A stretch of 64,000 nucleotides of DNA from Bacteroidota bacterium (GCA_037139195.1 JBAXGW010000018.1:19-64018), one strand, 5' to 3'. Shown: positions 43,621 to 60,210, counted from the stretch's first letter. Numbers and translations are program-made. Notes: a model not told the origin generated them from the sequence alone.

Positions 43621-43626
43621 CAAAAA

Positions 43627-43881: not shown

Positions 43882-43918
43882 CTTTTTTTTTACTGACTTT
43901 TGAAAAAAAGTTTTAACT

Positions 43919-44000
43919 GGGGAGGTACCAGAGCGGTCAAATGGGGCAGACTGTAAATCTGTTGGCGCAGCCTTCGGAGGTTCGAATCCTCCTCTCCCCA
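43919..44000 (+). tRNA. tRNA-Tyr (anticodon GTA)
   Basis: Acceptor ggggagg/tctcccc, anticodon loop ctGTAaa, long variable arm (ggcgcagccttc), T arm ggagg-ttcgaat-cctcc. Confidence 0.9.
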
Positions 44001-44166
44001 CAACAAAAAAAGAGGCACTTAGAAAAGCCTCATTAGTTCTTTGAAGGTGTTTTAAAAGTTTGAGATTGTGAAGTTGTTGATATTTAATAGTTTACATAGG
44101 TAAATGACTAAATTCAAAATCGAACAAAACGATAAAATTTCGACTTTTTAAACATCTTACTTTTAG

Positions 44167-44242
44167 GCGAAAGTAGCTCATTTGGTAGAGCGATAGCCTT
44201 CCAAGCTATAGGTGGCGGGTTCGAGCCCCGTCTTTCGCTCCA
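44167..44242 (+). tRNA. tRNA-Trp (anticodon CCA), with encoded 3' CCA
   Basis: Acceptor gcgaaag/ctttcgc, D arm gctc-atttggta-gagc, anticodon stem atagc/gctat with loop ctCCAaa, T arm gcggg-ttcgagc-cccgt, then t-cca. Confidence 0.9.
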
Positions 44243-44246
44243 AGTC

Positions 44247-44275
44247 AAGCCATTTGTTTTCAAATGGCTTTTTTA
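44247..44275 (+). terminator. rho-independent terminator after the tRNA cluster
   Basis: aagccatttg-tttt-caaatggctt followed by tttt. Confidence 0.75.
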
Positions 44276-44368
44276 TTTCTCTCTATTTTCATATTACAAT
44301 ATTTAGTACTTTTGTGTGATGGTAAACCTGTTCGATTTCAAATAATTGAAAGGTCTTGAATTTATTAT

Positions 44369-46303
44369 ATGAAGAAAACAAAAAAAATTGCTATCTATTC
44401 AATAATAAGCCTAACAGTTTTGTTTGGGCTATTCTTCATATTAAGAGGGCCCATACTTAGCTGGTATATCGATAAAAAAATCAAACAATTCAATATTGAA
44501 TATTCAGCACAACTAAAGCTTGGGAAGCATGAATTTGTAGGCTTGTCGGGAATTAAAATTTCAGACCTTTCGCTAAAAGAAAAAAGCAACGACACTTTAC
44601 TTACCATTAAAGATTGTTATGTTAAAGTAAACATTTTTAAATCAATTTTTGGAGGCGTCAATATTGGAAATATTGAATTAAATCAACCCCAGTTCTCTTT
44701 TATCTCAGATTCAACTCATAACAATTACAACTTCCTTTTAAAAAACAAAAAAACAAAAGAAGATACCATTCATCAAAAAAATTACGCCGAATACTTCAAT
44801 TCTATTATTTCAAAGGTATTTGACAAGCTTCCATCCACATTCGATATTAAAAACTTGAAAGTCCTTTTTTCAGTTAATAAATACAAAATTCAGCTTTCTT
44901 CGGATAATTTTTCTATGCTAAACGAAAAATTTAACGCCCTGTTTTTAGTTGAAGAAGATAGCTTAAAAGAGCAGCTCGAACTCACTGGTTCATACGACAA
45001 AGAAGATAAAACAGGCGATTTCAATTTAAAATCGATAGGAAACGATACCCTTTTTATTCCCTACATAAAACACAAATACCAATTAACGGTTGGCTTTAGC
45101 GAATTGACTGGAAGCATGAATACTTACAATAAAACTAATGACAATTCAGAAATTACAGGTGTTTTTTCTTCCAAAAACTTCATTTGTCATCATTGGCGCA
45201 TTTCGCCTGATAATATTGAAATTAGCAAAGTTAAACTAAACTACTCACTGCTTTTTGGCGAAAAATCAATCACATTAGACAGTACTTCTATAGTTGAATT
45301 CAATAAATTAAAATTCCGACTTTTTAGCGAATACATTAACGATACAAGCAAAAAAATAAAATTTTTTATTCCTAAGCTCTCATTTAAAGCCGACGACTTT
45401 TTCTCTTCACTACCAAAAGGATTATTTTCGACTCTTGAAGGAATCAAAACAAGCGGTGATTTAAGCTTTTTCTTTAATTTCGACCTAGATTTAGCTCAAA
45501 TAGATTCATTAAAGTTCAAATCAGAACTCGCAGCAAATGACTTAAAAATAAACTCAATGGGCAGGGTGAACTTTAAGTATGTTAACGATACTTTTACTTA
45601 TAATGCCTATGACAAAGGTGTTTTAATTCGTAAAATAATTATTGGTCCATCAAATCCAAATTATCGCAGCTTAGCTGAAATCCCAGATATACTAAAGTAT
45701 TCTGTAATAAATTCAGAAGATGGCTGGTTTTTTGGTCATAGAGGATTTTTGCCAGATGCAATAAGAGAATCGCTTATTGCAGATATTAAAGTGCGAAGAT
45801 TTGTAAGAGGAGGAAGTACTATTAGTATGCAATTGGTAAAAAATTTATTTTTAAATAGGAATAAAAATATAAGCAGAAAAGTTGAAGAAATGCTAATTAC
45901 ATGGCTTATAGAAAATAATAGGTGGATCAGTAAAGAACGAATGATAGAAATATATTTGAATATTATTGAGTGGGGACCTGGTATTTATGGAGCAAATGAA
46001 GCTGCAAAATTTTATTTCGATAAAGATGTTTCAAAATTAACCTTGGCTGAGTCAATATATTTGGCTAGTATAATTCCTCGACCAAAACTTTTTAAATATT
46101 CTTTTGATGAAACTGGAATGTTAAAAGAATATATTGTTAACTACTATCAACGAATGGCCGATAAAATGCTGAAAAAAGAATATATTAGTCAAAGCCAATA
46201 TGATGAATTAAAGACAGAAGTAACAATAAAAGGACCAGCAAAATATCTTCTAAGAACAGATAGTTTAAAACCTGATTCAATTGTATTTATAAAAAATTAT
46301 TAA
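44369..46303 (+). CDS. membrane-anchored protein: AsmA-like N-terminal region fused to a GT51 peptidoglycan transglycosylase domain
   Basis: 644 aa. The C-terminal third has GT51 motifs (INSEDGWFFGHRGF, RGGSTISMQLVKNLFL, KVEEMLITWLIE, IIEWGPGIYGANEAA). The N-terminal 430 aa has a TM anchor plus repetitive beta-rich segments and no transpeptidase domain. Confidence 0.7.
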   Translation: MKKTKKIAIYSIISLTVLFGLFFILRGPILSWYIDKKIKQFNIEYSAQLKLGKHEFVGLSGIKISDLSLKEKSNDTLLTIKDCYVKVNIFKSIFGGVNIGNIELNQPQFSFISDSTHNNYNFLLKNKKTKEDTIHQKNYAEYFNSIISKVFDKLPSTFDIKNLKVLFSVNKYKIQLSSDNFSMLNEKFNALFLVEEDSLKEQLELTGSYDKEDKTGDFNLKSIGNDTLFIPYIKHKYQLTVGFSELTGSMNTYNKTNDNSEITGVFSSKNFICHHWRISPDNIEISKVKLNYSLLFGEKSITLDSTSIVEFNKLKFRLFSEYINDTSKKIKFFIPKLSFKADDFFSSLPKGLFSTLEGIKTSGDLSFFFNFDLDLAQIDSLKFKSELAANDLKINSMGRVNFKYVNDTFTYNAYDKGVLIRKIIIGPSNPNYRSLAEIPDILKYSVINSEDGWFFGHRGFLPDAIRESLIADIKVRRFVRGGSTISMQLVKNLFLNRNKNISRKVEEMLITWLIENNRWISKERMIEIYLNIIEWGPGIYGANEAAKFYFDKDVSKLTLAESIYLASIIPRPKLFKYSFDETGMLKEYIVNYYQRMADKMLKKEYISQSQYDELKTEVTIKGPAKYLLRTDSLKPDSIVFIKNY

Positions 46304-46403
46304 AAATTTACTATTATACTCAATAAGTTTACAATTTATTCGTTTATACAAAAGCATATTTTAAATATATTTGTATTTAAATTTAAAAAAACAGATTTAA
46401 TTT

Positions 46404-46544
46404 ATGAAAAGAAAAAAAATTGTAGTAATCGCAGCGCTTTTTATAGCTCTTGCAACATTAATATCATCCTGTGGTTCAGGACCAAAGGGCTGTAAGAAAA
46501 TGAAATACCATAATAGCGACAGAAAAAGAGGATTAGCTAGTTAA
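46404..46544 (+). CDS. small basic lipoprotein (46 aa)
   Basis: Manually translated as MKRKKIVVIAALFIALATLISSCGSGPKGCKKMKYHNSDRKRGLAS. Lipobox LISSC. It lies just upstream of the sprE-like gene and is not in the ORF track because it is under 60 aa. Confidence 0.35.
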   Translation: MKRKKIVVIAALFIALATLISSCGSGPKGCKKMKYHNSDRKRGLAS

Positions 46545-46603
46545 TTTAACGACTAAGCTATTCCAATTTTTTATTATTTTTGTTAATATAAAAAATCTAT
46601 AGA

Positions 46604-49282
46604 TTGATAAACAATAAACTATATACTAAAGCAGTCAACATAGCATTTCTAGCATTGCTAATTGTTACTTTAGTCGCTTGCTCTGCAAAAAGAAATACTT
46701 TTACAAGCCGAGCTTATCATAATCTTACAGCAAGATATAATGCTTACTTTAATGGAAAAGAAAGTTTTAAAGAAGCTATTATTGCTACAGATAAATCATA
46801 TAAAGACAATTTTAATACTATTTTACCAATATTTAAATTTACCGACAACGAAAGCTCAAAAGGAGTTTTTCCACAATGTGACAGAGCAATTACTAAAGCT
46901 GGAATAGTTATTCAAAATCACTCTATGTTTATTAAAGGCAAAGAGCACAATAATTGGGTAGACGACAGTTACTTGCTTATGGGAAATTCTAATTTCTTTA
47001 AACGTGAATTTTTCACTGCTAATCAAATTTATCAATTTATCATCAACCAATACCCCGACAAATTAGGGCGTTACGAAGCTATGCTTTGGCTTGCTAACTC
47101 ATATATTCAAATGAACAAAAATTCTGAAGCACAAGGAATTTTCAATTTGCTTAACGACACAAAAAGCAAAGATGAGATGCCAAAATACTTGTACAAATGG
47201 ATTTTGCTATCGCAGGCTCAACTTAATATAAACACAAAAAATTATTCTAGAGCTTTAGAACCTATCAAATTAGCCCTTGAATTAAATAATAGAGAACGCT
47301 TCATTTCAAAAGATAAAGCCAAAGAACATCTTTTCTTTAAATATAAATTTAGCAAAAAAAGGAAAGCTAGAATTACATTTATTTTAGCTCAATTAAACGA
47401 AAAAATTGAAGAATTTGACGAAGCTTCAATGCTATACGGAAAAGTGCTTAAAATGAACCCAACTTATGAAATGGCATTTTATGCAAAAATCAATAGAGCC
47501 AAACTTTTTAATGTAAAAGCGGGTAATGCTGATAAAATTATTAGCGACCTGAAAAAAATGGCCAAAGATGGAAAAAATGTTGACTACCTTGATCAAATTT
47601 ACTTTGCACTAGCCGAATTAGCCCTTAAAGCTAATAATTTCAATCAAGGTGTTTCATATTTAAAGCTTTCAGCAAGCAAAAGCACAATTAACACTTATCA
47701 AAAAGCAATATCGTTCTTGCGTTTAGCTAACTTATATTTTGAAAAGCCTGAGTACGAATTTGCACAGCAGTATTATGATAGCACTATGACAGTATTACCT
47801 AAAGATTATCCCGATTATTCTGTTTATTCTGATAGAAAGGATGTATTATCAAATTTAGTGCTCAACTTAAACACTATAGCACGAGAAGACAGCTTGCAAA
47901 GACTTGCTAAAATGACTGCTGCAGAAAGAGATGAAGTAATTTCAGGGATTATTAAGAAAATAATTGAAGCAGAGGAATTAAAGCAATTACAAGACATGCA
48001 AGCACAACAATTGCTTAATAACATGCCACAAAACAACAATGTTGCTAGCACTGGTGGAGCAGGAAATTGGTATTTTGATAATCCATCGGCAATTAGCTTT
48101 GGGAAACAAGAATTTGCTAAAAAGTTCGGAAATAGAAAGCTTGAAGATAATTGGAGAAGATTTAGCAAGGAAGTAATTGTGGACTTTGGGACTGTGGACA
48201 ACAACCAAGTAGATTCATTAGCTAGCACTGCAAGCGCAGCAACAGTTGACCCAAAAGACAAAAACACCTATTTGAAAAACATCCCTTTAACAAAAGAAAT
48301 GATGTTTGAATCAACCGAAAAAATTAAAGAAGCCTATTATAATGCAGGTGTAATATTCCGCCAAGATTTAAATGATTTGCCAAAGTCGAACCAAACATTT
48401 GAAACTTTATTAACTAGATTTCCCGACAATAAGTTTCTTTTAGAAACCTACTATAAGCTATATTCCAATAATAACGAACTTAAAAACACACCAAAATCCG
48501 ACATCTACAAAAACATAATTATTTCGAAATATCCCGAATCTGATTATGCTAAAATGCTAATTAATCCAGAAGCATTTAAGCAGTCGAAGGAAAAGGAAGA
48601 CAACGAAACCAAGCTATATGCTCAAACCTATTTAGCATATAACCAAGGAAATTATGCTTTAGTTATTGCGAACAAAGACTTAGCCACTACAACTTATCCT
48701 GGCTCAAAATTACTTGCTAAATTCAACTACCTTAATGCATTGTCGGTGGGAAGAACTAAAGACACTGCAAGTTTTAGAGTTGAATTAGAAAATTTTATTG
48801 GCAAATTCTCTGGTTCGGATGAAGCAAAAGATGCTCAAATTATTTTAAATTACATGAAAGCACCTTTAGTATCAGCAGCATCCTCCGATCCATCAAAACC
48901 GGCAAAACAAAAGCAACTTTACACCTATAACGAAGCTTCCATACATTTTTATGCTCTTGTAGTGCCAATTATGGATATGGATGTAAACAAGTTAAAGGTA
49001 GCATTATCAGATTTCAACGCGAAATTCTTCAGCTTAGATGATTTGCAAGTTAACGCAGTTTATTTCGACGACAAGCATCAAATCATCAATATATCCAATT
49101 TTAAAGGAGCAGACAAAGCATTAACTTATTATAAGACATTCGAAAAACAAGATATTTTATCAAAACTTGCTAAAACAAGTCAATATTACCAATTTGTAAT
49201 ATCTACCGATAATTACACTCGTTTATACAAAGCAAAAGACGTAGATAATTACATGGAATTTTATAAAGAGAATTACAAATAA
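46604..49282 (+). CDS. sprE: TPR-repeat lipoprotein, SprE/PorW-like T9SS/gliding component
   Basis: 892 aa. Lipobox LVACS followed by KRNTFTSRAYHNLTARYNAYFNG, as I recall for the SprE/PorW N-terminus. Multiple TPR-like helices. TTG start at 46604. Confidence 0.55.
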   Translation: MINNKLYTKAVNIAFLALLIVTLVACSAKRNTFTSRAYHNLTARYNAYFNGKESFKEAIIATDKSYKDNFNTILPIFKFTDNESSKGVFPQCDRAITKAGIVIQNHSMFIKGKEHNNWVDDSYLLMGNSNFFKREFFTANQIYQFIINQYPDKLGRYEAMLWLANSYIQMNKNSEAQGIFNLLNDTKSKDEMPKYLYKWILLSQAQLNINTKNYSRALEPIKLALELNNRERFISKDKAKEHLFFKYKFSKKRKARITFILAQLNEKIEEFDEASMLYGKVLKMNPTYEMAFYAKINRAKLFNVKAGNADKIISDLKKMAKDGKNVDYLDQIYFALAELALKANNFNQGVSYLKLSASKSTINTYQKAISFLRLANLYFEKPEYEFAQQYYDSTMTVLPKDYPDYSVYSDRKDVLSNLVLNLNTIAREDSLQRLAKMTAAERDEVISGIIKKIIEAEELKQLQDMQAQQLLNNMPQNNNVASTGGAGNWYFDNPSAISFGKQEFAKKFGNRKLEDNWRRFSKEVIVDFGTVDNNQVDSLASTASAATVDPKDKNTYLKNIPLTKEMMFESTEKIKEAYYNAGVIFRQDLNDLPKSNQTFETLLTRFPDNKFLLETYYKLYSNNNELKNTPKSDIYKNIIISKYPESDYAKMLINPEAFKQSKEKEDNETKLYAQTYLAYNQGNYALVIANKDLATTTYPGSKLLAKFNYLNALSVGRTKDTASFRVELENFIGKFSGSDEAKDAQIILNYMKAPLVSAASSDPSKPAKQKQLYTYNEASIHFYALVVPIMDMDVNKLKVALSDFNAKFFSLDDLQVNAVYFDDKHQIINISNFKGADKALTYYKTFEKQDILSKLAKTSQYYQFVISTDNYTRLYKAKDVDNYMEFYKENYK

Positions 49283-49367
49283 CAAAATAGTTTTTAAAAA
49301 AATATTTTGATTCTATTATTTATTACTTATATTTGCTAAGCAAAGAAATTGATAAACAACAAAAAAC

Positions 49368-49775
49368 ATGGCAAGAAACGAAAACGAAACTCAATCCATT
49401 AACCTTATAGGCAATGGAACTGTAATAAAAGGAGACATTATTGCTAATGGCGACATTAGAATTGACGGAACGTTACATGGCTCTCTTAACACAAAAGGCA
49501 AGTTAGTTATTGGACCATCGGGAATTGTAGAAGGCGATATTGTTTGCCAAAATGCAGAAGTTCAAGGACAAATTAAAGCTCAAATAAAAGTTAACGAGTT
49601 ATTAGCTTTAAAAGCAACGGCAAAATTAACAGGTGATATTATCACAAACAAATTGGCAATTGAGCCAGGAGCAGTATTTTCTGGAACTTGTAATATGGAC
49701 GCAGGAAAAAATATAATGTCAAATGTTCCAAAACAAGAAGTTAAAACCCAACAACCTGAAACAATCGCTAAATAG
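49368..49775 (+). CDS. bactofilin-family cytoskeletal protein
   Basis: 135 aa. Repetitive beta-helix pattern (VIKGDIIANGDIRIDGTLHGSLNTKGKLVIGPSGIVEGDIVCQNAEVQG). Confidence 0.8.
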   Translation: MARNENETQSINLIGNGTVIKGDIIANGDIRIDGTLHGSLNTKGKLVIGPSGIVEGDIVCQNAEVQGQIKAQIKVNELLALKATAKLTGDIITNKLAIEPGAVFSGTCNMDAGKNIMSNVPKQEVKTQQPETIAK

Positions 49776-49974
49776 CTACGCTAAATACTCGAGCCTAGGT
49801 TTTCAAATGGTATTTATAATATTAGCCGGTACATTCGGAGGCTTTAAGCTTGACGGATATACCGGTTTTAAATTTCCAATTTTCACCATTGTTCTTTCTA
49901 TTAGCTCTGTGGCTTTGGCAATATATTTTGCAGTTAAAGATTTTATTAAGCCTAATGATAAAAGCAAGAATTAA
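49723..49974 (+). CDS. AtpZ/AtpI-like small membrane protein
   Basis: 83 aa. YAKYSSLGFQMVFIILAGTFGGFKLD plus a second TM segment, resembling the AtpZ/putative F0F1-ATPase subunit family. The 53-nt overlap with the bactofilin gene makes the start uncertain. Confidence 0.4.
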   Translation: MFQNKKLKPNNLKQSLNSYAKYSSLGFQMVFIILAGTFGGFKLDGYTGFKFPIFTIVLSISSVALAIYFAVKDFIKPNDKSKN

Positions 49975-50008
49975 ATTTAATTATTGACAGTTATATTCCG
50001 CAAATAAG

Positions 50009-50389
50009 ATGAAAAATATTCAATCAAAATACCCACTATTTTTAGTAATCTTCAGCTCAATAGTTTTATTAGTGAGCTGGTTAGGGAATAATTATATCCC
50101 GTTAGAATTTAAATACGAAAATTTCACCTATTTGCTAAGCTATTACTTCGCATTTACCTATATTATTTTGGGTATACTATTTAAAAGTGCAGTAAAATCG
50201 CCTCAAAAATTTGTGAATACATTTATGATAATAACCACATGCAAATTACTTATCAATGGCATGATTGCTGTTATTTTTGCATTTACTAATAGACCCGAAG
50301 CAAAAGGCTTTTTAGTTTTTTTCTTAGCCTATTATTTGCTATATACTGGCTTTGAAGTTTTGGCCATTACTGCCTATAAAAGCAAATAA
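50009..50389 (+). CDS. 4-TM membrane protein, function unknown
   Basis: 126 aa with four hydrophobic segments. Co-oriented with the two preceding genes. Confidence 0.4.
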   Translation: MKNIQSKYPLFLVIFSSIVLLVSWLGNNYIPLEFKYENFTYLLSYYFAFTYIILGILFKSAVKSPQKFVNTFMIITTCKLLINGMIAVIFAFTNRPEAKGFLVFFLAYYLLYTGFEVLAITAYKSK

Positions 50390-50520
50390 TATTTGTAGTT
50401 TTAAAAGCTATAATTCAAGTATTAAGCCATAGGTTTTATTTGTTCTATCGCTCCAATAAGTATTTTCCGAATAGTACCCTTGTAATGATATAACCGAGAT
50501 TAATCATTAGATTAATATTC

Positions 50521-51000
50521 CTTTCTTTTGCTTGACCAAAAGAACCAAGAATGGTCTGCCGTATGACTCTAATCACTATTCACCAATAGGTCACTTAGCG
50601 AAGTCGAAGTGCACCATTCACTATTTAAACTCTTGCAAAGTTTCTATGATATGATTATCAATGACGACGGTAGTTCGGGGATGTGCTCTATATCACAAAA
50701 TATACCGTTTTAGCAGATTGCGAATATTCGTATGTTTTTATTGCAGAATTCCATAGAAGCTCATAGTGAGTAGTGAATCGTGAACGGCGAAGCCCTCACC
50801 GAAGGTAATAGTTGCCGTATGGTCTGCCGAATGGCTCCAATCACTATTCACCAATCACTATTCACTATTTAGTTTTGTTACCCTAAAAAAGGTTCTATGA
50901 TATGATTATCAATCTTTTCAAGTGTTTTTCGATGCGTTACATCACATAAAATATCCTTTTATATCAAAAACGAATATTCGTATGTTTTTATTGTGGAATT
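50521..51000. repeat. non-coding composite repeat: hairpin module plus two tandem units of about 250-268 bp
   Basis: The hairpin tttcttttg/caaaagaa (50521-50543) matches 13094-13117. Unit A runs about 50552-50750 and unit B about 50820-51000. They share ggtctgccg.atg.ctc.aatcactattcacc, ttctatgatatgattatcaat and gaatattcgtatgtttttattg..gaattc. Confidence 0.8.
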
Positions 51001-51020
51001 CTGGGGAATTTCATGGACAT

Positions 51021-51686
51021 TTATTCGCTTATATTAATAGGTGTGTCCCATTTTTTATAGGAAATCTTTTTAAAACAAATATTATATTTCCCTTTTTTAT
51101 CTATCCATATCAGCTCATTCTTTTTTATTATTAATTTCTCGTTGCTCAAATTTTTCGTATATTGCTTAATAGATTGCAAATCCACTAATTCCATTCTTTT
51201 ATTGTGAAAAGAATTTGCTATAAATATAAGCCCTTCTTCATTATTTTCAGCATTAGTTATTGATATTCTATTTACGCTAATTGTATCAACAAAAAACCAT
51301 TTGTCATCAGACTTTAAAGTATCTACAAGAAAGTTGTTGTTTATTTTTATAACAACTTTCTTGCATAAAGTTGTATCCATATTAAATTTGATGAATACTC
51401 CATTTATTGTACTATCATCAATAAATGTATTTTTACTTTGCGGCTGAATAAATGAATTAATAAGTATTGTGTCTCCAGTAAATTTTTCCCATTTTCCTTT
51501 GCATATCACCCATCCTCTATAATCAGAATAGGTGTTGTACTCAAAGGTTCCATTTGATTTTATACGTATTTGAGAGCATTCCACTCCTCCATTATCACAA
51601 TACAAACTGTAAAAGTTTTCGTTTAAATGACAAAGTTTGCATGAGTTAACTAATAATAGGATTAAAAAGAATAATATAACTTTCAT
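51021..51686 (-). CDS. lipoprotein, candidate immunity protein for the upstream toxin
   Basis: 221 aa. Lipobox LLVNSC. Its ATG overlaps the toxin stop (ATGA at 51683-51686). No recognisable enzymatic motifs. Confidence 0.45.
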   Translation of the reverse strand: MKVILFFLILLLVNSCKLCHLNENFYSLYCDNGGVECSQIRIKSNGTFEYNTYSDYRGWVICKGKWEKFTGDTILINSFIQPQSKNTFIDDSTINGVFIKFNMDTTLCKKVVIKINNNFLVDTLKSDDKWFFVDTISVNRISITNAENNEEGLIFIANSFHNKRMELVDLQSIKQYTKNLSNEKLIIKKNELIWIDKKGKYNICFKKISYKKWDTPINISE

Positions 51687-52663
51687 TTTACAAAATCCTC
51701 CTCGAAATCCTTAAAAGTTTTACCGTCATATTTAGTTTGCATTTCAAATGGACGTCCATTCGCCCAAGCACTCAGAACGTATTCTATTAACATGCTAGAA
51801 TTTAAATTAACGGATGGAATATCTTTATCATAGCCATATATAACAATTAAATCACTTGTCGAAACTTTTAAAAGTGGGTCGCTTAAATATCCAAAAGCAC
51901 TGCCTCTCTGTTTTGCAGCTTGTTCATCTGTTAAATCATACAGCCATCCAGGAGCCCCTGTTTCTTTATTAAAACTAAATTCACCTTTAAGAGCTTGGTA
52001 TCCATGTTTTAATTCATGTGCCATTGTTCCAGTATTTCCAACATTGTAATTCATTTGAATAATACCATTTTTATAACGTACATTACCTTTCACTCTATTA
52101 TTTTCATCATTATAATTACTTGTAGGATTCAAAAAGAATTTCATATCACTATTATTCATTTCAACAACTTCATCTATCATAGTATTCAATTCAGATATTT
52201 TATTATTTAAATTAATGTTCTCTTCTGAAAGTTTCGCAAACTCTTTATCAGCAGAATTCATTCCATTTAATTTGCCATTGTTTTCATTAATTTTGTTGTT
52301 TATTTCCGTTTTTTGTTTATTCGCTTTTTCAATTATTTTTCCAGATACTTTACTGTCTTTTTTGCCCTGTCTATCTACGAACTCATCTCCAAGTAAATCA
52401 ATATTAAAAATAGGATTATTCCCAAAACAAGCGTAATCTGAAATATGAATTTGCGGTTTAGGGTCCAAATTCCACCTTCTTGCAATTCTACTATCGTATT
52501 CCCAAAACTTAGCAGTGTACAAACCTTGAGTTATATCATTATCTTTTTCCTGTCCGTTCATTCCACGAGTACTGCTATTACTGTTGAAAGAGCGTCCCCC
52601 CATTTCCATACCGAATGCATAATAATCTGTAATATTTATGCTTAGTTTTTGCAAATTGAACAA
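51683..52663 (-). CDS. orphan Rhs-tip polymorphic toxin fragment with an HExxH (zincin-like) C-terminal domain
   Basis: Opens with the end of an Rhs core (DYYAFGMEMGGRSFNSNSSTRGMNGQEKD...WEYDSRIARRWNLDPKP...YACFGNNPI). A coiled-coil linker and a domain containing TMAHELKHGYQ follow. TTG start, with an in-frame TAG three codons upstream. Confidence 0.65.
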   Translation of the reverse strand: MFNLQKLSINITDYYAFGMEMGGRSFNSNSSTRGMNGQEKDNDITQGLYTAKFWEYDSRIARRWNLDPKPQIHISDYACFGNNPIFNIDLLGDEFVDRQGKKDSKVSGKIIEKANKQKTEINNKINENNGKLNGMNSADKEFAKLSEENINLNNKISELNTMIDEVVEMNNSDMKFFLNPTSNYNDENNRVKGNVRYKNGIIQMNYNVGNTGTMAHELKHGYQALKGEFSFNKETGAPGWLYDLTDEQAAKQRGSAFGYLSDPLLKVSTSDLIVIYGYDKDIPSVNLNSSMLIEYVLSAWANGRPFEMQTKYDGKTFKDFEEDFVK

Positions 52664-52760
52664 TATTTTTCGCTATAAAAGTACTGTTTTTGAGTTATAA
52701 TTCATAGTTATTATCATTTTTTTGTGTTATTAGTATGACCATGGGCAATGTAAATTATTA

Positions 52761-52792
52761 TTTGTTTTAAGTTGTTGTTTGTGTTATATTTG
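52761..52792 (+). promoter_or_regulatory. candidate sigma-A promoter of the antitoxin/toxin pair
   Basis: TTTG at 52761-52764, 20-nt spacer, TAtaTTTG at 52785-52792. It lies 20 nt upstream of the ATG. Confidence 0.45.
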
Positions 52793-52812
52793 CATTTTAA
52801 AATCAACCATTT

Positions 52813-53013
52813 ATGTATAAAGAAAACTTTATTGTAGATAACTTAGGAAACCGCATAGCTGTTATGCTCCCAATTAAAAAATATGACAAAATGTGCGAAG
52901 CATTAGAAGAACTTGAAGATATTAAAGCGTATGATTTTGCAAAAGCAAAAAATGAACAAACTATTCCGTTAAGAGAAGCTATTAAACTTCGCAAACAAAA
53001 ACAAAATGGATAA
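52813..53013 (+). CDS. type II antitoxin (Phd/RelB-like)
   Basis: 66 aa. 8-nt overlap with the downstream RelE-like gene. Acidic central helix (CEALEELEDIKAYD). Confidence 0.55.
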   Translation: MYKENFIVDNLGNRIAVMLPIKKYDKMCEALEELEDIKAYDFAKAKNEQTIPLREAIKLRKQKQNG

Positions 53014-53263
53014 ATACACAGTTGTAATTAATAAATCTGTTCAAAAACTTCTTCAAAAACTTCCAAATAATATTGCAGAGCAACTCGAAAACAGTATGCT
53101 TGATTTAGAAAATAATCCACGCCCAAATGGATGCAAAAAGCTAAAAGGTCGCTCAGCCTACAGAATACGTGAAGGAAATTACCGAATTATTTATGAAATT
53201 GAAGATAAAATCATTACTGTAATAGTTACAAATATTGGTCATAGAAAAGACATATATAAATAA
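53006..53263 (+). CDS. RelE/ParE-family type II toxin
   Basis: 85 aa. The block NPRPNGCKKLKGRSAYRIREGNYRIIYEIEDKIITVIVTNIGHRKDIY is the classic RelE/StbE pattern. Confidence 0.8.
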   Translation: MDKYTVVINKSVQKLLQKLPNNIAEQLENSMLDLENNPRPNGCKKLKGRSAYRIREGNYRIIYEIEDKIITVIVTNIGHRKDIYK

Positions 53264-53437
53264 AATTTCAACCCAAAACCTTTAATAGGTAGTCAGTCAC
53301 TATCTGCCGTATGGCACCCTTTACACTTCGACTACCGCTCAGTGCATCGCCATTTACCTTGCACCGTGAACCATCAAATCGTTCCTGTCTTAAATAATAT
53401 TCAAAGCTTTATAATCCTTTTAAATGTGAATCGTGAA

Positions 53438-53542
53438 TAGTTGCCGTATGGTCTGCCGAATGGCTCCAATCACTATTCCCCAATCACTATTCACTATTTA
53501 GTTTTGTTACCCTAAAAAAGGTTCTATGATATGATTATCAAT
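53438..53542. repeat. 105-bp copy of the island boundary repeat
   Basis: Identical to 50808-50912 at 104 of 105 positions by manual alignment. The single difference is cactattcCcc versus cactattcAcc. Confidence 0.9.
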
Positions 53543-53599
53543 GATGAGGGTGCTTCGGGGAATTTGCACTTCAATATTGCCATAGCTAACCCCTTTATG

Positions 53600-54016
53600 T
53601 TATGGAACAGGATTCAGAGAAACTATGTAAATAAATCCTGTATATGATGAAAATATTACATACGCTAATGCTAAGATTTCTGGTAGAAAATTAAATTTAG
53701 AATACTTGCCTCTCTCAATTTGTTCAGATATAATCAAATATTTTTCGTTGTGGTGCAAAAGCAAATAATTGAAAACTGAAAAAACAAGAATAAGCAAGAA
53801 AAAGAGAAAAAAAAATGATTCCTTTTTTACTGAAAAAAGTGCGACTACATTAATAGCTTCAAATGATGACAGGCAAGTGAAGGCAACAGCAAATAAATCA
53901 CTAGTTGACTTTCTGTCATCAATTGAGATGCCTTCAAATAACGAATAGATGCCGTAATATATAAAATAAAACGGAATAAGAATAATTTCAATTAATTTTA
54001 TTCGGAACTGAATCAT
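53600..54016 (-). CDS. 4-TM membrane protein, possible second immunity or accessory protein
   Basis: The start at MIQFRIKL gives an ATGA overlap with the upstream stop (54013-54016). Four hydrophobic helices. Confidence 0.4.
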   Translation of the reverse strand: MIQFRIKLIEIILIPFYFIYYGIYSLFEGISIDDRKSTSDLFAVAFTCLSSFEAINVVALFSVKKESFFFLFFLLILVFSVFNYLLLHHNEKYLIISEQIERGKYSKFNFLPEILALAYVIFSSYTGFIYIVSLNPVP

Positions 54017-54432
54017 TTTTTTAAATCCCAATTTTCTTTACATTGCTTAATTGCATGTTTCGCATTAATATTAGCTGAATCCAATAATAAAACTTTTTGA
54101 AAATAATCAATCGCTTTTACACCTTCGTTAGCCATCATACAATTTAACCCTTTATAAAACAAACATTTTTCTACTTTGTATTTATGATTAATGCAATAGT
54201 CAAAAAAATAATTAGATTCATTAATTTTCCATAATTTACCACATGCAAACCCTCTCTTAAAAAAGAACTCAAAATCTAATGTGTCTGGTTTTATGTAGCT
54301 AAATAGTGAATCAGCTTTTAAATAATTTTCTTCTTTATAAAATAATAAAGCTTGCTTTTTTAGCTCAATTTTGTCTGCTCCATTACAAGCAGTCAAGCAT
54401 ATTAATACGAATAATAAATAGTGTTTTCTCAT
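54013..54432 (-). CDS. TPR-like lipoprotein, candidate immunity protein
   Basis: 139 aa. Lipobox CLTACNG. Helical TPR-like repeats (ALLFYKEENYLKADSLF; AIDYFQKVLLLDSANINAKHAI). ATGA overlap with the toxin stop. Confidence 0.45.
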   Translation of the reverse strand: MRKHYLLFVLICLTACNGADKIELKKQALLFYKEENYLKADSLFSYIKPDTLDFEFFFKRGFACGKLWKINESNYFFDYCINHKYKVEKCLFYKGLNCMMANEGVKAIDYFQKVLLLDSANINAKHAIKQCKENWDLKK

Positions 54433-55520
54433 TTGTACATATCATTAACAATATTCATTTGCTTAGATAAATCTTTGCATTTTTCCTTTAGATGTGTGTT
54501 ATAAGGGTCTCTAATTAACTTTGCTTGAGTATCCCAATATTCCGCTGCTATATTAAGTGCAACACCTTCTTTCATGAATTCAGTGTTTACTGCTTTTGTT
54601 AATATATATATTTCCGTGCCGCAAACAACACCAATGGCTGTGCTTGCAGCAGTAACACCAGCTGCACCATAATCTCCATCATAAATAAATTTGCCAGTTT
54701 GTGCAACTCCAATGCCAAATCCTAGAGCATTGGGGAATTTGCCCCCTTTGCCAGATAATTCTGATGCAAGACCTATCACATCCGAAGCATCTCCTACATC
54801 ATTAAGTGCTTTATCTAATGGGGTGTTATGGGAAAATCTGCTGTTAATTTTTGGTTGAGAAATAACAATCGGATTTATTTTAAAAGAAGTACTTTCTGAA
54901 ATCGGCTCGGTTCTATTAGGAGCTTTATTATTAGTAGCCACATTGCTTTCTGGATTTTTTTCTCCATTCCAACCAAATCTGCGTTGATATGCAACACCGC
55001 CATCCGTACCTGGAGCAGCACTGGCATCCTTTCTATATTTAACGTCCTTTCCCACATAATATTGACCAGTATTTAAATCTGTTTTAACTTCTCCACCATG
55101 GAAAATTTTATATGCATAAGCTTGAAATTTATGCTTAAAATCGCCAAATTTATCAACATACGCAATTGGGTTATTTCCAAAGCAAGCGTAATTACTTTCC
55201 CATGAAACAGGTTTTGGGTCTTTATTCCACCTTCTGCCAATCCTTGCATCATACTCCCAATACAAAGCAGTATAGATTCCCGCTCCAATTTCTTGGTCTT
55301 TTTCCTGTCCGTTCATTCCACGAGTGCTGGTATTACTATTGAAAGCTCTGCCTGGCATTTCCATACCGAATGCATAATAATCGGTACTACTAATAATATC
55401 AGCTTGGTAATAATCGAAAGCCCCCGAAGTATTGAAATGCGGTATTTTTCTATCGCTAATGGTAGTCAGTACGTTTCCGAGATGGTTTGTTAGCTCGTTA
55501 TATTTACAGGATGTAATCAC
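54429..55520 (-). CDS. orphan Rhs-tip polymorphic toxin fragment with a glycine-zipper-containing C-terminal domain
   Basis: NHLGNVLTTISDRK...DYYAFGMEMPGRAFNSNTSTRGMNGQEKD...WEYDARIGRRWNKDPKP...YACFGNNPI is followed by an unrelated 240-aa C-terminus containing ALGFGIGVAQTG...GAAGVTAASTAIGVVCG. GTG start. Confidence 0.65.
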   Translation of the reverse strand: MITSCKYNELTNHLGNVLTTISDRKIPHFNTSGAFDYYQADIISSTDYYAFGMEMPGRAFNSNTSTRGMNGQEKDQEIGAGIYTALYWEYDARIGRRWNKDPKPVSWESNYACFGNNPIAYVDKFGDFKHKFQAYAYKIFHGGEVKTDLNTGQYYVGKDVKYRKDASAAPGTDGGVAYQRRFGWNGEKNPESNVATNNKAPNRTEPISESTSFKINPIVISQPKINSRFSHNTPLDKALNDVGDASDVIGLASELSGKGGKFPNALGFGIGVAQTGKFIYDGDYGAAGVTAASTAIGVVCGTEIYILTKAVNTEFMKEGVALNIAAEYWDTQAKLIRDPYNTHLKEKCKDLSKQMNIVNDMYK

Positions 55521-55533
55521 TGGCGCATTGCAG

Positions 55534-57303
55534 CTATTCTCTTACTAAGGTAACAGTGCCCGTTTCGTTATAGATTTTATCTGCAATATCACCCTTAAAT
55601 ATAAAATAATAAGTTCCTGATGGCGCTTCTAACCCTGCTTGAGTTTTGCCATCCCAACCTACATGTGGATTGTTGGTTTCGAAAATTAAATTTCCCCAAC
55701 GATTAAATATTTGCAAAGCAAACGATTTTGAACCACTATTTTTAATATAGAAATTATCGTTGAAACCATCACCATTTGGAGTAAATACATTAGGTATCAC
55801 TGCACCACTAACAACATGTACAATATACGATGCAGTATCTTTGCAACCAAATTCATTTTCTACTAAATACGATACAGTATAATCGCCTGGATTTTCATAT
55901 TCGTGATATGGATTTTGTAAGTTATTTCCGTAACCATCACCAAATTCCCATGTGTACGTATAATTTGATGTGTTAATTGTATCCATCAAATGAACTAAAT
56001 CGTGTTCGAAAATATTATTTGTATCAGAAATAATAATTGCATCGGGTTTTGGATGTATTACAACATTACAAGATAATTCATTAGTATTACAAAAACCGAA
56101 AATATTTTGTGATACAGCAACAGTTCCATTTCCCGGATTCGACCAATCTACAACTATTGTAGAGTCGGTTGGATCAGTAATAATAGCACCTCCAGTTACA
56201 GTCCATTCGTAATCGCCAGGGTTTGCACCACCATTAAGTGTATAAGTAGAACCCGTATCGCCAAAGCACAACTCAGAGCTGCAAATTAAATCGGTAATAA
56301 TCGGTTTTTTATACGAAAGAATAAATGGGTGAGGATTAAAATTAGTCCAACCATTAGGAATTTTAACAATTGCAGTGGTAGGCGTAGGCTGTCCTAAGTA
56401 ACTATAGTTGTTTCCAGTATTATGCCACATATTTCCACCTGTAGTTTGCCAATGTGCAATGCTATTCCAATCATAAGGATCTTGAACCATATCGTATTGG
56501 ACAGTAACATCAGTAGGTGCATTTCCTTGTGCTTGATCAATTAGGTGATAGTATTGCATGTTAGAAAAACAAACAGTATCGTCTCTCAACCAAATATCGT
56601 AACCATCATCAGTAGCTAAATTATTTACCATACGAATTGCAAAAATATTAGTATCAGATGGATTGCTCATTTTAAGGATTACAGGACGATATCTTTGAAT
56701 TCCAACCGAAGAACCAACAGGAAATAAATAGGGCTGTGGTAAAAGCATTTGCCTATTTAGTGAACCATTAGCTAAGCTGCTTACAAATCCAGTAGTGCGG
56801 CTAATTGCATTTACATCAACATTATTTACATGCATAATATTTGTTTCTGTAGCAAGTTCTCTATCCGTTAAATCAAGATTATTAGTTACTATAGCATCAA
56901 TTTCTTGAAATTTAACACCTGTTCCAGTAAGAAGTAAATTATTAAAACTAGAAATTTGTGTTCCTTTTATCCATTGGTTATAGCCATTCAAGCTAACTAA
57001 GCCTAAACCAGAGTTGAATTCTTGATTGTTTTCCCAATCATTAAACACCTCAAAGAAACCATTACCAGCATAGTCGCCGCCATAGGTTATTCCATCGTTG
57101 ATATAACTACCTTCGATATGAACATTTCCAAGATTATAAAAACATGAATCAATGGTATGAACATCACCATTTATTTGAACAACAGCATCAACACTAACGT
57201 GAAAATGAATATCGTTAACAGTAACTAATTGTGCATTAACAGCTGCAGTTGAAATAAAAGCAGCAATAAACAACAATCTTTTAAAAGCAAAAAGCATTTT
57301 CAT
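55534..57303 (-). CDS. T9SS cargo protein with PKD-like domains and a type-B (CHU_C / gliding-associated) C-terminal domain
   Basis: 589 aa. Signal peptide. PKD-like segment (YTWEFGDGYGNNLQNPYHEYENPGDYTVSYLVENEFGC). C-terminal IPNVFTPNGDGFNDNFYIKN...GTYYFIF. Confidence 0.7.
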   Translation of the reverse strand: MKMLFAFKRLLFIAAFISTAAVNAQLVTVNDIHFHVSVDAVVQINGDVHTIDSCFYNLGNVHIEGSYINDGITYGGDYAGNGFFEVFNDWENNQEFNSGLGLVSLNGYNQWIKGTQISSFNNLLLTGTGVKFQEIDAIVTNNLDLTDRELATETNIMHVNNVDVNAISRTTGFVSSLANGSLNRQMLLPQPYLFPVGSSVGIQRYRPVILKMSNPSDTNIFAIRMVNNLATDDGYDIWLRDDTVCFSNMQYYHLIDQAQGNAPTDVTVQYDMVQDPYDWNSIAHWQTTGGNMWHNTGNNYSYLGQPTPTTAIVKIPNGWTNFNPHPFILSYKKPIITDLICSSELCFGDTGSTYTLNGGANPGDYEWTVTGGAIITDPTDSTIVVDWSNPGNGTVAVSQNIFGFCNTNELSCNVVIHPKPDAIIISDTNNIFEHDLVHLMDTINTSNYTYTWEFGDGYGNNLQNPYHEYENPGDYTVSYLVENEFGCKDTASYIVHVVSGAVIPNVFTPNGDGFNDNFYIKNSGSKSFALQIFNRWGNLIFETNNPHVGWDGKTQAGLEAPSGTYYFIFKGDIADKIYNETGTVTLVRE

Positions 57304-57508
57304 AATATGCTATATATCAGTAATAACTTTATTTTAGTAGCCAGTGTAATTAATCTGTAAAAGTGGCGATTTTATTCTACAAAAACAAATTTTGAACCCA
57401 CTTTTTGATTTTTATTATACATTTTATCGGTTCTTTAATAATTTTTATGAAATAGATCAAAAAAACGTACTACCTAATTAATACGAAAAAAATTAAAATA
57501 GGTTGCTT

Positions 57509-58531
57509 TTATTTCTTTGGTTTATACTTTGATTGTAAAAATATTTTATGAGCATCTTTATCCATGAGCAATTGAGCCAGCTTCACATTTGGATTTTGCT
57601 TCATATAACTTCTAACAATTTGCCAGCCTACCCATATACCAATTCTAGAAGGCGACTCTTTCGAAATAGAAGAAGTAAAAGGTCCATCTGATGTATATTT
57701 TTGAATATCGTCAATATTTGAAGAATACAGCAATTTCTTTTCTATAAAGAAAGCCCAAACATTTGCCTCATTCTTTTCGCACCAATTAATTTCTGATTCA
57801 TTAAATCCAATTTTCAAACTATCTTCCTTATCGGGAAACATAGCATCCACAAAATAATACATTTTGCCATAATATACCATTTTACTAATCAAGTCTTGGT
57901 TAAGTGTGCTATCCGTGAATTCAGACATGGCCCAACCCAGCATACAATCGGATGAAATATATTGTTTATCCATTCTGCAAACTTTATAAGTTGGAATTCC
58001 TAACATTGGGTAATATTCGAATTTTTTTCCAAGATACATATCTAAACTTATAGCTAGCGTAGAGTCGGTGGCTATTATAGGATAGTTAAAACCACTTATA
58101 CAAGTAGCAATACGAGGAATTAATTTATTAGGGAAATAATATTTGTAGTGTTTGAGTCCTTCATTTAAATCTTTTTCAATATCATCAACATTTTCAAATA
58201 TCTTCAGGGTGCGAGTATAAATATCTTGCAAATCTGCATTTTCTCTAAATTTTTGAAAAGACAAATAAAAATTAGAATCCTTATTATCGCCTAATTTCAT
58301 AACGCTACCTGCATATATATCAAAGAAACCTCCGTACTTTTTCTTCAAAAACCGAACCTGACTTTTAGCATCCATTTTTTGTGAAGCAAAAACATCCTTA
58401 TCAAATCGTATAATTTCAAGTTTATAGTTTATATCATCGGTTTTAACGTCTTTTAATGAATTTTTATTTTCGCAAGAAAAAAAAGATAACAATACAATTG
58501 CTACAAATAAAATTTGTGCGATTTTTCTCAT
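57509..58531 (-). CDS. gldB: gliding motility lipoprotein GldB
   Basis: 340 aa. Lipobox-like FFSC. The C-terminal block KESPSRIGIWVGWQIVRSYMKQNP...IFLQSKYKPKK matches my recollection of the GldB family. Confidence 0.7.
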   Translation of the reverse strand: MRKIAQILFVAIVLLSFFSCENKNSLKDVKTDDINYKLEIIRFDKDVFASQKMDAKSQVRFLKKKYGGFFDIYAGSVMKLGDNKDSNFYLSFQKFRENADLQDIYTRTLKIFENVDDIEKDLNEGLKHYKYYFPNKLIPRIATCISGFNYPIIATDSTLAISLDMYLGKKFEYYPMLGIPTYKVCRMDKQYISSDCMLGWAMSEFTDSTLNQDLISKMVYYGKMYYFVDAMFPDKEDSLKIGFNESEINWCEKNEANVWAFFIEKKLLYSSNIDDIQKYTSDGPFTSSISKESPSRIGIWVGWQIVRSYMKQNPNVKLAQLLMDKDAHKIFLQSKYKPKK

Positions 58532-58692
58532 AGGTGATAAATTAAAGTTTTTCCAAAGTTAAATTAAATTTTAATTGATTTGAAAATACTTCATATATAA
58601 ATTTAATCTACTACATTTGTAATAGAACATAAATTTTATTTACATATCTCATATTACAACCTCATAATCTGGCTTTAACAGCAAATTACAAC

Positions 58693-59370
58693 ATGAACAA
58701 ACTATATATAAAATCGTATTTAGGATTAGCCAATTTAGTGTTTATAATAGCCTTACTCTTGTTTCTCCCAGTGTGGAGTGTTTATTATTGGCAAGCTTGG
58801 CTATATATTGCAACATTTACCATTTCGGTAATGTGGATTACAGCCTATTTTTTAAAACACGACACTGAGCTAATCAAGCGTAGACTAAAGGCGGGTCCAG
58901 CTGCTGAAAATGAAAAAGGGCAGAAAATAATTCAATCATTGGCAAGTGTTGCTGTAATTGGAATTATTATAGTTTCTGCATTTGATCATAGGTTTAAACT
59001 TTCAGAGGTATCGGTAGTACTCACAATCGTATCAAACGTATTTATATATTTGGGCTTTTACATTGTTTTTCTGGTTTTCAAAGAAAATAGCTTTACCTCC
59101 GCAATAATAGAAGTAGCCGATAGTCAAAAAGTAATATCAACGGGTCCGTATTCCACAGTAAGACATCCAATGTATTCAGGAGCCTTACTCCTATTCGTTT
59201 TTACGCCTTTGGCTTTAGATTCTTATTTCGGATTGCTCCTAAGTGTAATGCTAATTTTAGTTTTAGTTTTTCGATTACAAAACGAAGAAGCATTTCTTAA
59301 AACAAATTTAGTAGGTTATACTGAATATTGCGAAAAGGTAAAATACCGATTGGTTCCTTGGATTTGGTAA
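58693..59370 (+). CDS. isoprenylcysteine carboxyl methyltransferase (ICMT/PEMT-like) family membrane protein
   Basis: 225 aa with 5-6 TM segments. Contains the family motif VISTGPYSTVRHPMYSGALL. Confidence 0.65.
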   Translation: MNKLYIKSYLGLANLVFIIALLLFLPVWSVYYWQAWLYIATFTISVMWITAYFLKHDTELIKRRLKAGPAAENEKGQKIIQSLASVAVIGIIIVSAFDHRFKLSEVSVVLTIVSNVFIYLGFYIVFLVFKENSFTSAIIEVADSQKVISTGPYSTVRHPMYSGALLLFVFTPLALDSYFGLLLSVMLILVLVFRLQNEEAFLKTNLVGYTEYCEKVKYRLVPWIW

Positions 59371-59375
59371 TAAAA

Positions 59376-59687
59376 TTACATCAATCCCAATTCCAACATA
59401 GCATCTGGCGAAATTAAATCTTTCGTCCATGGTGGATCGAAGGTGATTTCTACATCCACGCTTTTAACGTCTTCAATATATTTTATAGCATCTACAATTT
59501 CAGGTGGAATACGTTCTGCCTCAGGGCAATTTGGGCTTGTAAGTGTCATAATAATTTTCACATCTTTTGATTCAGAAATATTTATTTCATATATCATTCC
59601 TAAATCATATACGTTAACAGGAATTTCGGGGTCATAAACGGTTTTAATTGCCGAAATTATTTTGTTTTTTAATATCATATTTTCCAT
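59376..59687 (-). CDS. DUF59 / SufT-like Fe-S assembly protein
   Basis: AIKTVYDPEIPVNVYDLGMIYEI...LTSPNCPEAE is the MIP18/DUF59 signature. The ATG at 59685-59687 is preferred over the TTG at 59730-59732. Confidence 0.7.
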   Translation of the reverse strand: MENMILKNKIISAIKTVYDPEIPVNVYDLGMIYEINISESKDVKIIMTLTSPNCPEAERIPPEIVDAIKYIEDVKSVDVEITFDPPWTKDLISPDAMLELGLM

Positions 59688-60210
59688 ATTAATATAATTA
59701 TTTTTTTTTAATTTCAATTCGTTATTTTGCAAAGAAATCCTGTAATAATATTAATAGCGAAAATATAAATACCAAATTCATTTTCGCTATTTATATTTTC
59801 AAAAAATTACACAGTTCATAAAACAAATAACAGCATTACTTAAGTGTAAAGTTAATGAAATTGTTTCTATTTTCAATGTTTATTTTGGTATGAGCGATTA
59901 AAATGAATATTTTGGATTCATTTAGTCTTTTAAAGATAAAATCAAACAAGAAGAAAAAAATCGACAAGTCATTAAATTATTCGTCAATGAATCATATAAA
60001 ATTCGATATAAATTTTCTAAAAAAAAAGTTATAAACCGATTAGAAAATAAAGTTCGTAAGTAGTCAAATATTTTTTCAAAAATACTTGGAATTACAAGCT
60101 AATTGACTTTAAATTTGCCTTTTTTTAAGAATTATTTCTTAAAAAAAATTAATTATATTTGATTTTGGTAAATCGATTTAGTATATTTGTATTTTAATAA
60201 TAAATAGTCC

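Follow-up and report, generated by a model that had tools for sequence, protein, structure and literature searches.

Why does the core chromosome of a Bacteroidota bacterium carry two C-terminal ends of Rhs toxins, each with a small gene behind it, and no rhs gene beside them? The question is raised by a block at positions 50390–57303 of a 64,000-nt stretch of DNA from a freshwater metagenome (the window). Two open reading frames (ORFs) of this block, here called tips 1 and 2, open with the last part of an Rhs shell and end in putative toxin domains. An initial annotation, made from the sequence alone, had described them as toxin/immunity cassettes without a parent gene, directly behind a cargo gene of the T9SS (type IX secretion system). 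Three explanations had been offered: a silent reservoir of toxins, recombining with an rhs gene at a distance, remnants of a deleted rhs gene, or a delivery arrangement that had not been described. The first of these fits best, in view of the mosaic cores and the fourth copy of the core that were found in the same genome, and the other two are rated lower. The island (50390–55533) is likely to be a small chromosomal set of orphan Rhs tip/immunity cassettes that is kept as immunity and as a recombination reservoir. The locus is a tidy example of a known thing, namely toxin tips and immunity genes that persist away from the delivery gene, and a repeat of about 250 nt is its sole feature that does not fit a known category.

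Two truncated Rhs genes in one island

The locus was recovered in two metagenomic DNA runs (X1 and X2) at depths of about 29x and 33x; a third run (X3) held solely low-depth fragments, which were 100% identical and came from the same strain. Read on the minus strand from 57303 to 50390, the order is a T9SS cargo gene with a CHU_C sorting domain, tip 1, candidate immunity genes 1a and 1b, a repeat, a toxin-antitoxin (TA) pair on the plus strand, tip 2, candidate immunity gene 2, and two repeats (Table 1). The island comprises the two tip/immunity cassettes and the ParE/RelB pair, with the repeat between them. Gene 1b, the TA pair and the repeat had been overlooked in the initial annotation.

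Table 1. Features of the studied block, in window coordinates.
Feature	Positions	Strand	Description
Upstream neighbour, outside the cassettes	55534..57303	-	Secreted protein of 589 aa; PKD domains and a sorting domain of T9SS type B (CHU_C)
Orphan Rhs tip 1	54429..55520	-	363 aa from GTG; pre-core and core, post-core module, unique C-terminus
Conserved pre-core and core block of tip 1	55140..55499	-	'ELTNHLGNV...WEYDARIGRRWNKDP...NNPIAYVDKFGD'
Candidate immunity gene 1a	54013..54432	-	139 aa lipoprotein, LTAC lipobox, TPR; ATGA overlap with the stop of tip 1
Candidate immunity gene 1b	53600..54016	-	138 aa, about 4 hydrophobic transmembrane helices; ATGA overlap with gene 1a
Inter-cassette repeat, copy A	53436..53561		99% identity with copy B over 107 nt
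RelB-like antitoxin and ParE/RelE-family toxin	52813..53263	+	Antitoxin 52813-53013, toxin 53006-53263
Orphan Rhs tip 2	51683..52663	-	326 aa from TTG; core, coiled coil, HELKH domain
Candidate immunity gene 2	51021..51686	-	221 aa, signal peptide or lipoprotein signal (VNSC site); ATGA overlap with tip 2
Inter-cassette repeat, copy B	50807..50932		99% identical over 107 nt to copy A
Inter-cassette repeat, copy C	50551..50764		Full unit of about 250 nt; 'ttctatggaattctgcaataaaaaca' head at 50721-50764

The claim that both ORFs open with an Rhs core and then diverge proved correct. Both tips matched the model of the Rhs-associated core, TIGR03696, over its whole length (1-75/76), with scores of 31.2 bits (E 2.3e-7) and 27.3 bits (E 3.8e-6), which lie 1.3 and 5.2 bits below the curated cutoff of 32.5. 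They are identical to each other at 60 of 85 residues (71%, E 7e-41), and past the 'GD' that closes the core they cannot be aligned. Residues 8-127 of tip 1 comprise a pre-core and the core and terminate in DKFGD, and tip 2 contains the core alone (52385-52639), terminating in DLLGD. The 5′ homology to other Rhs genes extends over 120 aa in tip 1 and 85 aa in tip 2. Its boundary in tip 1 lies at 55498/55499, about 35 nt from the stop codon of the upstream gene, and there is no similarity upstream of it. The RHS_repeat family had no match in either ORF, and an N-terminal export or delivery domain is absent, as both ORFs start at the pre-core.

The unusual start codons were also confirmed by their coordinates. 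The earliest in-frame ATG of both tips lies within 'FGMEM'. The frame of tip 1 is open from 55541, and an in-frame TAA (55544-55542), seven codons upstream of the possible GTG start, sits within the 3′ end of the CHU_C gene. The TTG of tip 2 lies three codons past an in-frame TAG. Both ORFs stay open for about 230 codons beyond the core in DNA of 30% GC, which fits a recent origin or selection.

The 120 aa block of tip 1 had 15,536 representatives at E ≤ 0.001 in an exhaustive profile-free search. Within the best 150 matches, proteins of 1,572–3,225 aa carry it about 350 aa from the C-terminus, and the block of the tips is 56–64% identical to its counterpart at this place in bona fide Rhs proteins of 2,375–3,225 aa. 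The full-length relatives that were inspected have a Sec signal peptide, DUF6443, RHS repeats and differing toxin domains after a DxxGD motif, which is the family-typical ending of the core. Because the block holds the same place in these proteins, it is the end of a true Rhs shell, and the concern that it might not derive from an Rhs core can be set aside.

The absence of a YD-repeat body elsewhere in the window was borne out, as tblastn with YD-bearing relatives returned only the two tip blocks. Pfam searches with the remaining 30 large ORFs of the window revealed no Rhs repeat, no gene of a type VI secretion system (T6SS; PAAR and VgrG included), no integrase and no transposase, so that the proposed search for T6SS genes remained negative within the 64 kb.

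Further copies of the core in the same genome

The statement that there is no parent rhs gene holds for the window and not demonstrably for the genome, in which a third orphan and a fourth copy were detected with the shared core. Unitigs of similar depth (28–34x versus 29x) also carry the sequence 55372-55498. Two of them, of 14,239 nt and 1,645 nt, correspond to a locus of a sister assembly (L007). Here, a third orphan ('MIGKRNYGLGNVLTTISDRKIPHFNTSGAFDYYQ...', P0121, positions 9959-11570 of L007) starts 40–70 nt after the stop codon of a CarboxypepD_reg/Plug gene, which resembles genes for TonB-dependent receptors. Compared with 'YELTNHLGNV' it has a deletion of three codons, and an in-frame TGA splits the core (179 aa) from a Tox-MPTase3 domain (121 aa). 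The third orphan is a decaying copy, and its in-frame TGA indicates that orphans decay. It is followed by a gene for an exported protein of 181 aa, a repeat, a RelE-type TA pair, a second repeat and a HigBA-type pair.

The fourth copy was read at the end of a unitig of 15,389 nt (33.8x and 38.4x). This end contains 'SMIGKKQYELTNHLGNV', the canonical sequence that precedes the block in full-length genes; from there it runs on into a core of its own ('DYYAFGMEMGGRKYPLNST'). The unitig is a candidate for the full-length rhs parent, and to this extent the search for further copies that had been proposed was successful. A protein-database search for the fourth copy with a 67 aa query was negative (six candidates, one unrelated 84 aa fragment).

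A nucleotide alignment of the three readable cores (tips 1 to 3) revealed a three-way reticulate mosaic. Tips 1 and 3 are 93–100% identical over the first 120 nt or so and 67–83% identical afterwards, and tips 1 and 2 as well as tips 2 and 3 share differing patches, each with 93–97% identity. Recombination among the copies yields such a pattern. As expected of orphan rhs-CT/immunity modules, the tips have 5′-truncated cores that are homologous at the nucleotide level to further rhs copies in this genome.

Orphan tips and full-length genes in the Rhs family

The parentless arrangement had been regarded as unusual, a view that was not upheld by the comparison with other genomes. In 72 of the 239 retrieved relatives (about 30%) the NHLGNV motif lies within the first 40 residues; most matches are short, and just 11 of the 239 exceed 1,500 aa. 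In finished or long assemblies, ORFs that consist of the tip alone have the same starting point as tip 1, e.g. 'MGNKQFELTNHLGNV' and 'MKRVSPYELSNHLGNV'. Isolated orphans without an rhs gene in the 10 kb upstream flank were found in other genomes (L003, L004, L006), one orphan tip adjoins recombinases and a primase in an apparent mobile element, and another locus contains a long orphan array (L005). Saprospira grandis (CP002831; L036 62-16784) has a classical array, in which several tip-sized ORFs with small partners, including an Ntox44 tip (P0082), lie behind a large gene that is split by an rve-family insertion sequence into parts of 1,437 and 870 aa and is probably the main rhs gene. As the contexts of the orphans vary and 72 of the 239 relatives begin near NHLGNV, orphan tips, also those without a full-length rhs gene nearby, are ordinary for this Bacteroidota Rhs family.

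Three full-length relatives on unrelated contigs (L009 1-18328; L010 1-17128; L011 1-19678) are encoded in a co-directional operon with a conserved order, which starts with a gene for a protein of about 800 aa and continues with those for a Skp/OmpH-like chaperone (PF03938, E 2e-18), a protein of about 200 aa, a protein of about 2,100 aa without a family match, a LolA3-family protein (NF053579, 95.9 bits; cutoff 83), the Rhs protein and the immunity protein. Such parent-type operons cover 15 kb or more and include five accessory genes, and neither T6SS nor T9SS genes flank the three of them. The Skp, LolA3 and 2,100 aa proteins may form a dedicated export module. LolA3 has no assigned role in PMC11885536, and no paper was found that links LolA3 to Rhs.

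Predicted toxins and candidate immunity genes

The proposed toxin-immunity layout was found to be sound. The ATGA overlaps of tip 1 with gene 1a and of tip 2 with gene 2 are real and 4 nt long; the lipobox of gene 1a and the signal peptide and VNSC site of gene 2 were verified. All three ATGA-coupled downstream genes have an ATG start and an export signal. From this layout, they are predicted to be immunity genes that guard against cognate toxins delivered by neighbours. Genes 1b and 2 had no family matches.

After the core, tip 1 contains a post-core module of about 65 aa that is common to several other tips, followed by a unique C-terminus with a glycine-rich hydrophobic stretch at residues 255–310 or thereabouts. 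This stretch, together with the downstream protein with four transmembrane helices, suggests for tip 1 a toxin that acts on membranes, with a membrane protein as its immunity partner, and gene 1b may be the real antidote. Beyond its core, tip 2 has a coiled coil and then strands and a helix that carries the HELKH motif (52004-52018). In a pairwise comparison the toxin domain of tip 2 was 42% identical to that of a relative (P0025), in which the HELKH residues are conserved; the genes downstream of the two tips have no detectable similarity to each other. At database-wide E-values the toxin domain retrieved only itself. The motif and a sub-threshold match to Peptidase_M91 (E 0.056) suggest a zincin-type toxin resembling zinc metallopeptidases. 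A sequence search of the PDB gave no match, and the AlphaFold2 models had mean predicted local distance difference test (pLDDT) values of 43.5 and 36.5 for the two tips, too low for a fold search.

Orphan tips as a probable reservoir

The tips are 5′-truncated copies of the last 85–120 codons or so of a Sec-signal/DUF6443-type rhs gene, and each copy is followed by a toxin domain of its own. As they stand they would not be exportable, because the signal peptide, the YD-repeat shell and the delivery domains are all absent. The cell would keep the ATG-initiated immunity genes, which may be a shield against the same toxins from kin or competitors, and the conserved core would be a homology arm that lets a distant full-length rhs gene exchange its toxin tip. 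Immunity is most likely the trait under selection, and the tips are probably retained as armour and spare parts.

Several points weigh against this explanation. Both toxin ORFs are intact and have possible GTG and TTG starts, so that autonomous expression is conceivable. The three downstream proteins lack matches to known Imm families, and their assignment comes from the layout. The toxin assignments are weak, with regard to both the peptidase match and the structural models. No full-length rhs gene has been read from this genome, the 15.4 kb unitig being a candidate. Lastly, three metatranscriptomes of these samples lack the depth to cover even secA.

Two of the closest known systems also involve orphan tips. 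Orphan rhs-CT/rhsI modules of Enterobacteriaceae were reportedly described by Poole et al. in 2011 and by Koskiniemi et al. in 2014. Enterobacterial orphans can be re-attached to a full-length rhs gene through homologous recombination in the core. The tips resemble them in the truncated core, the variable toxin, the cognate immunity gene (here predicted), the lack of a proper start codon and the homology to full-length rhs genes that would permit recombination and reactivation of the tip. In contrast, enterobacterial orphans directly follow the main rhs gene, whereas here no rhs gene exists within 64 kb and the upstream gene encodes a CHU_C/PKD protein; furthermore, the present family is of the Sec-signal/DUF6443 Bacteroidota type and not of the PAAR/T6SS type. 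In Gilliamella apicola from the bee gut, orphan-only Rhs genomes or loci with linked immunity genes have been found and a defensive role has been proposed (PMC8125069). That case is alike in its orphan toxin domains and linked immunity genes but differs in phylum and secretion context.

A repeat between the cassettes

A non-coding repeat of about 250 nt follows each cassette. Two further copies are present in L007 (11600-11800 and 12430-12690), and the repeat divides toxin/immunity and TA cassettes in both islands. All five copies within 84 kb fall inside the islands. The read depth over the repeat unit is raised two- to ninefold, which indicates further copies elsewhere. An apparent joint from 50764 to 53381 was considered as a deletion variant and rejected, since it belongs to a unitig of 702 nt with mismatches and the depth of the flanks was not doubled; it represents another repeat copy elsewhere. 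Matches of an 18-mer of the repeat to viral contigs (24 scattered single matches) were judged to be chance matches in AT-rich DNA. Within copy B, a piece of about 40 nt (50780-50819, 'ccttcggtgagggcttcgccgttcacgattcac') reached depths of about 2,600 and 1,800, compared with about 30 for the genome, which is an excess of about ninetyfold. This depth implies that the piece has a much wider distribution than the organism or the remainder of the repeat.

Rfam had no match for the repeat or the block. In silico folding of the repeat was no better than that of shuffled sequences for three of four copies (z -2.0 to +0.2), and no convincing attC-like hairpin was found. A recombinase is absent from the ORFs of the window and from the gene list of L007 (no Phage_integrase match).

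The RelE-type and HigBA-type TA pairs of L007 occupy a position equivalent to that of the ParE/RelB pair of the window. The relB gene is preceded by a Bacteroidetes-type TAnnTTTG motif at 52785 (TATATTTG, the canonical -7 element) together with a TTTG upstream, some 20 nt ahead of the ATG. Such a motif was convincing for relB only, and the canonical form was not found upstream of tip 2. At the far edge of the L007 island, beside a histidine ammonia-lyase gene, there is a perfect G+C-rich palindrome of about 22 bp (13525-13575, 'ggagagaggtggttgtcggtgg caaa gccaccgacaaccacctctctcc').

Two known systems invite comparison. Bacteroidales acquired interbacterial defence (AID) clusters, including rAID-1, consist of acquired immunity genes in arrays, between which lie repetitive sequences that are said to recall integrons (bioRxiv 10.1101/471110). 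The present islands are similar in having arrays of immunity-type genes and intergenic repeats (five copies in two islands), and rAID-1 protects without a matching weapon, as the islands would. However, rAID-1 has an adjacent conserved XerD-family recombinase and a skewed GC content; no recombinase was found in the window or in L007, the GC content of the block is like that of its flanks, and the arrays described here are tiny (2–3 cassettes) and retain toxin fragments. Sedentary chromosomal integron arrays, and clusters of attC sites lacking integron-integrases (CALINs), consist of small promoterless cassettes, including TA pairs, with a conserved repeat between them. The islands resemble these in their small cassettes, among them TA pairs, that are set apart by a conserved repeat; they differ in the absence of intI, in a repeat of about 250 nt without a convincing attC-like hairpin, and in the orientation of the cassettes, which lie in both directions.

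The repeat may be an element of the repetitive extragenic palindromic (REP) or miniature inverted-repeat transposable element (MITE) type that accumulates in dispensable DNA, or it may serve as the site at which a cassette system like rAID-1 recombines, with the recombinase encoded elsewhere. That the locus as a whole reflects a repeat-marked cassette system, in which tip/immunity and TA pairs move as separate units into the 3′ flanks of unrelated chromosomal genes, or a T9SS-assisted export of tips near cargo genes, seems unlikely.

Alternative explanations

A wreck in situ is somewhat less likely again. A full rhs operon would have stood between the CHU_C gene and tip 1 and would have been lost in one deletion up to 'YELTNH', leaving an array of displaced tips. 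Tandem tips with shrinking 5′ homology, as seen here, are the pattern of successive C-terminal displacement; the homology boundary of tip 1 is close to the upstream stop codon, and a classical array behind a main gene is known in the family. However, the genome has its third orphan elsewhere, where both the junction and the upstream gene differ, and no YD or operon fragment is left in the window. In addition, the size of the parent operons with their accessory genes would require a clean deletion at both loci.

The tips could also be addiction modules, expressed at a low level in the cytoplasm and stabilizing the island together with the immunity genes, like ParE/RelB. The intact tip ORFs and the co-location of type II TA pairs in both islands are consistent with this, but the immunity candidates carry export signals and would miss a cytoplasmic toxin, and the canonical Bacteroidetes promoter motif is missing upstream of tip 2. 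We regard this explanation as very improbable.

The gene that ends 13 nt upstream of the GTG of tip 1 does encode a PKD protein with a type B T9SS domain, as had been claimed (CHU_C E 1.7e-20; TIGR04131 55 bits, cutoff 35). No terminator lies in the gap, and therefore the CHU_C gene and tip 1 are likely to be co-transcribed. It could be imagined that the tips are translated from their GTG and TTG codons and exported via the CHU_C protein or the T9SS. The short gap without a terminator is in favor of such a delivery, and CHU_C proteins are encoded within 10 kb of two other orphans as well. However, the T9SS features are confined to the upstream neighbour; the tips have no signal peptide or N-terminal hydrophobic segment, no CHU_C domain and no Por_Secre_tail. 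Tip 2 has no T9SS cargo neighbour, the third orphan follows the receptor-like gene, and other orphans lie behind a DUF6089 gene or beside a peptidase S8 gene. The full-length relatives belong to the Skp/LolA3 operon, without T9SS genes in its flanks. Because the upstream neighbours of the orphans vary, even within this genome, the adjacency is most likely incidental, and the 13 nt spacing would simply reflect the chance position of the 5′ illegitimate junction. Such genomes encode many CHU_C proteins, and chance alone should place some of them nearby. A functional meaning of the adjacency, and with it a T9SS-linked delivery, is extremely doubtful. Nor is the arrangement undescribed, since correlations of polymorphic-toxin or rhs genes with adjacent T9SS cargo genes have been published for Bacteroidota (PMC7073777, PMC8125069), and these are a further point in favor of a link. 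TANFOR toxin genes (PMC7073777) and Apibacter rhs genes (PMC8125069) lie directly downstream of genes for PKD/CTD (C-terminal domain) T9SS substrates. Those toxins are full-length and have Sec signals, whereas the tips are truncated and no such neighbour is conserved across the orphans.

In both runs, a single unitig spans 55455-59000 without a mismatch and at uniform depth; the junction between the CHU_C gene and tip 1 is real, and the initially named alternative of an assembly-broken rhs gene was not substantiated. That tip 1 truly ends the full-length rhs gene of the 15.4 kb unitig and was joined to the CHU_C gene by a mis-path through the 113 nt or so shared at 55372-55484 is hardly credible: three loci do share exact unitigs of 60–75 nt and a k=31 graph cannot decide their pairing, but the identical join is present in the window, in ENA NODE_705 and in a further 87 kb contig, which are independent assemblies, a read pair exceeds the 113 nt repeat in length, and the X2 depths pair the 15.4 kb unitig (38.4) with its own core unitig of 1,024 nt (37.5) and not with tip 1 (29.1).

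Genomic surroundings

The island lies within the core chromosome. Its flanks, a bactofilin/AtpZ-like gene set and gldB, were confirmed, and the GC content of the block (26–39%) is similar to that of the flanks. The other large ORFs of the window include dnaG, pdxA, a murF-alr fusion, proS, secA, a penicillin-binding protein gene and other housekeeping genes as well as a few T9SS type A cargo proteins. One of the latter (25749-28892) is a protein of 1,047 aa with Por_Secre_tail and DUF7619 domains, in which at least 10 tandem units of 123 nt (41 aa) match the Reg_prop 'two component regulator propeller' repeat. A PADLOC analysis of the block gave no match, and a scan for sigma-70 promoters and terminators did not exceed the expectation from shuffled sequences. 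The search for syntenic relatives via the CHU_C protein yielded one distant match each in GTDB genomes and JGI metagenomes, restricted to the CTD.

A cluster of tRNA-Thr, tRNA-Tyr and tRNA-Gly genes is located at 43809-44242, at a distance of 6 kb from the island; since core genes intervene, the cluster does not suggest itself as an integration site. Near-identical metatranscriptome contigs within 40300-60000 were found in two places only, the tRNA-Tyr region and a 183 nt piece of the bactofilin gene.

Implications for the Rhs family in Bacteroidota

For annotation, short ORFs labeled 'RHS repeat-associated core' in Bacteroidota genomes and metagenome-assembled genomes should be treated as orphan cassettes, and neither as broken assemblies nor as new secretion arrangements. 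Two by-products, the Skp/LolA3 Rhs operon and the inter-cassette repeat, may matter more than the tips themselves. The operon of the full-length genes points to an export route that is not described in the literature found, and it would give LolA3 a candidate role. The shared repeat could offer a way to learn how cassettes of this kind spread. If the repeat does mark a cassette system, that system would collect interbacterial-conflict cassettes in the manner of rAID-1 or an integron, here in freshwater Bacteroidota that are free-living, and this would account for the 'parentless' tips.

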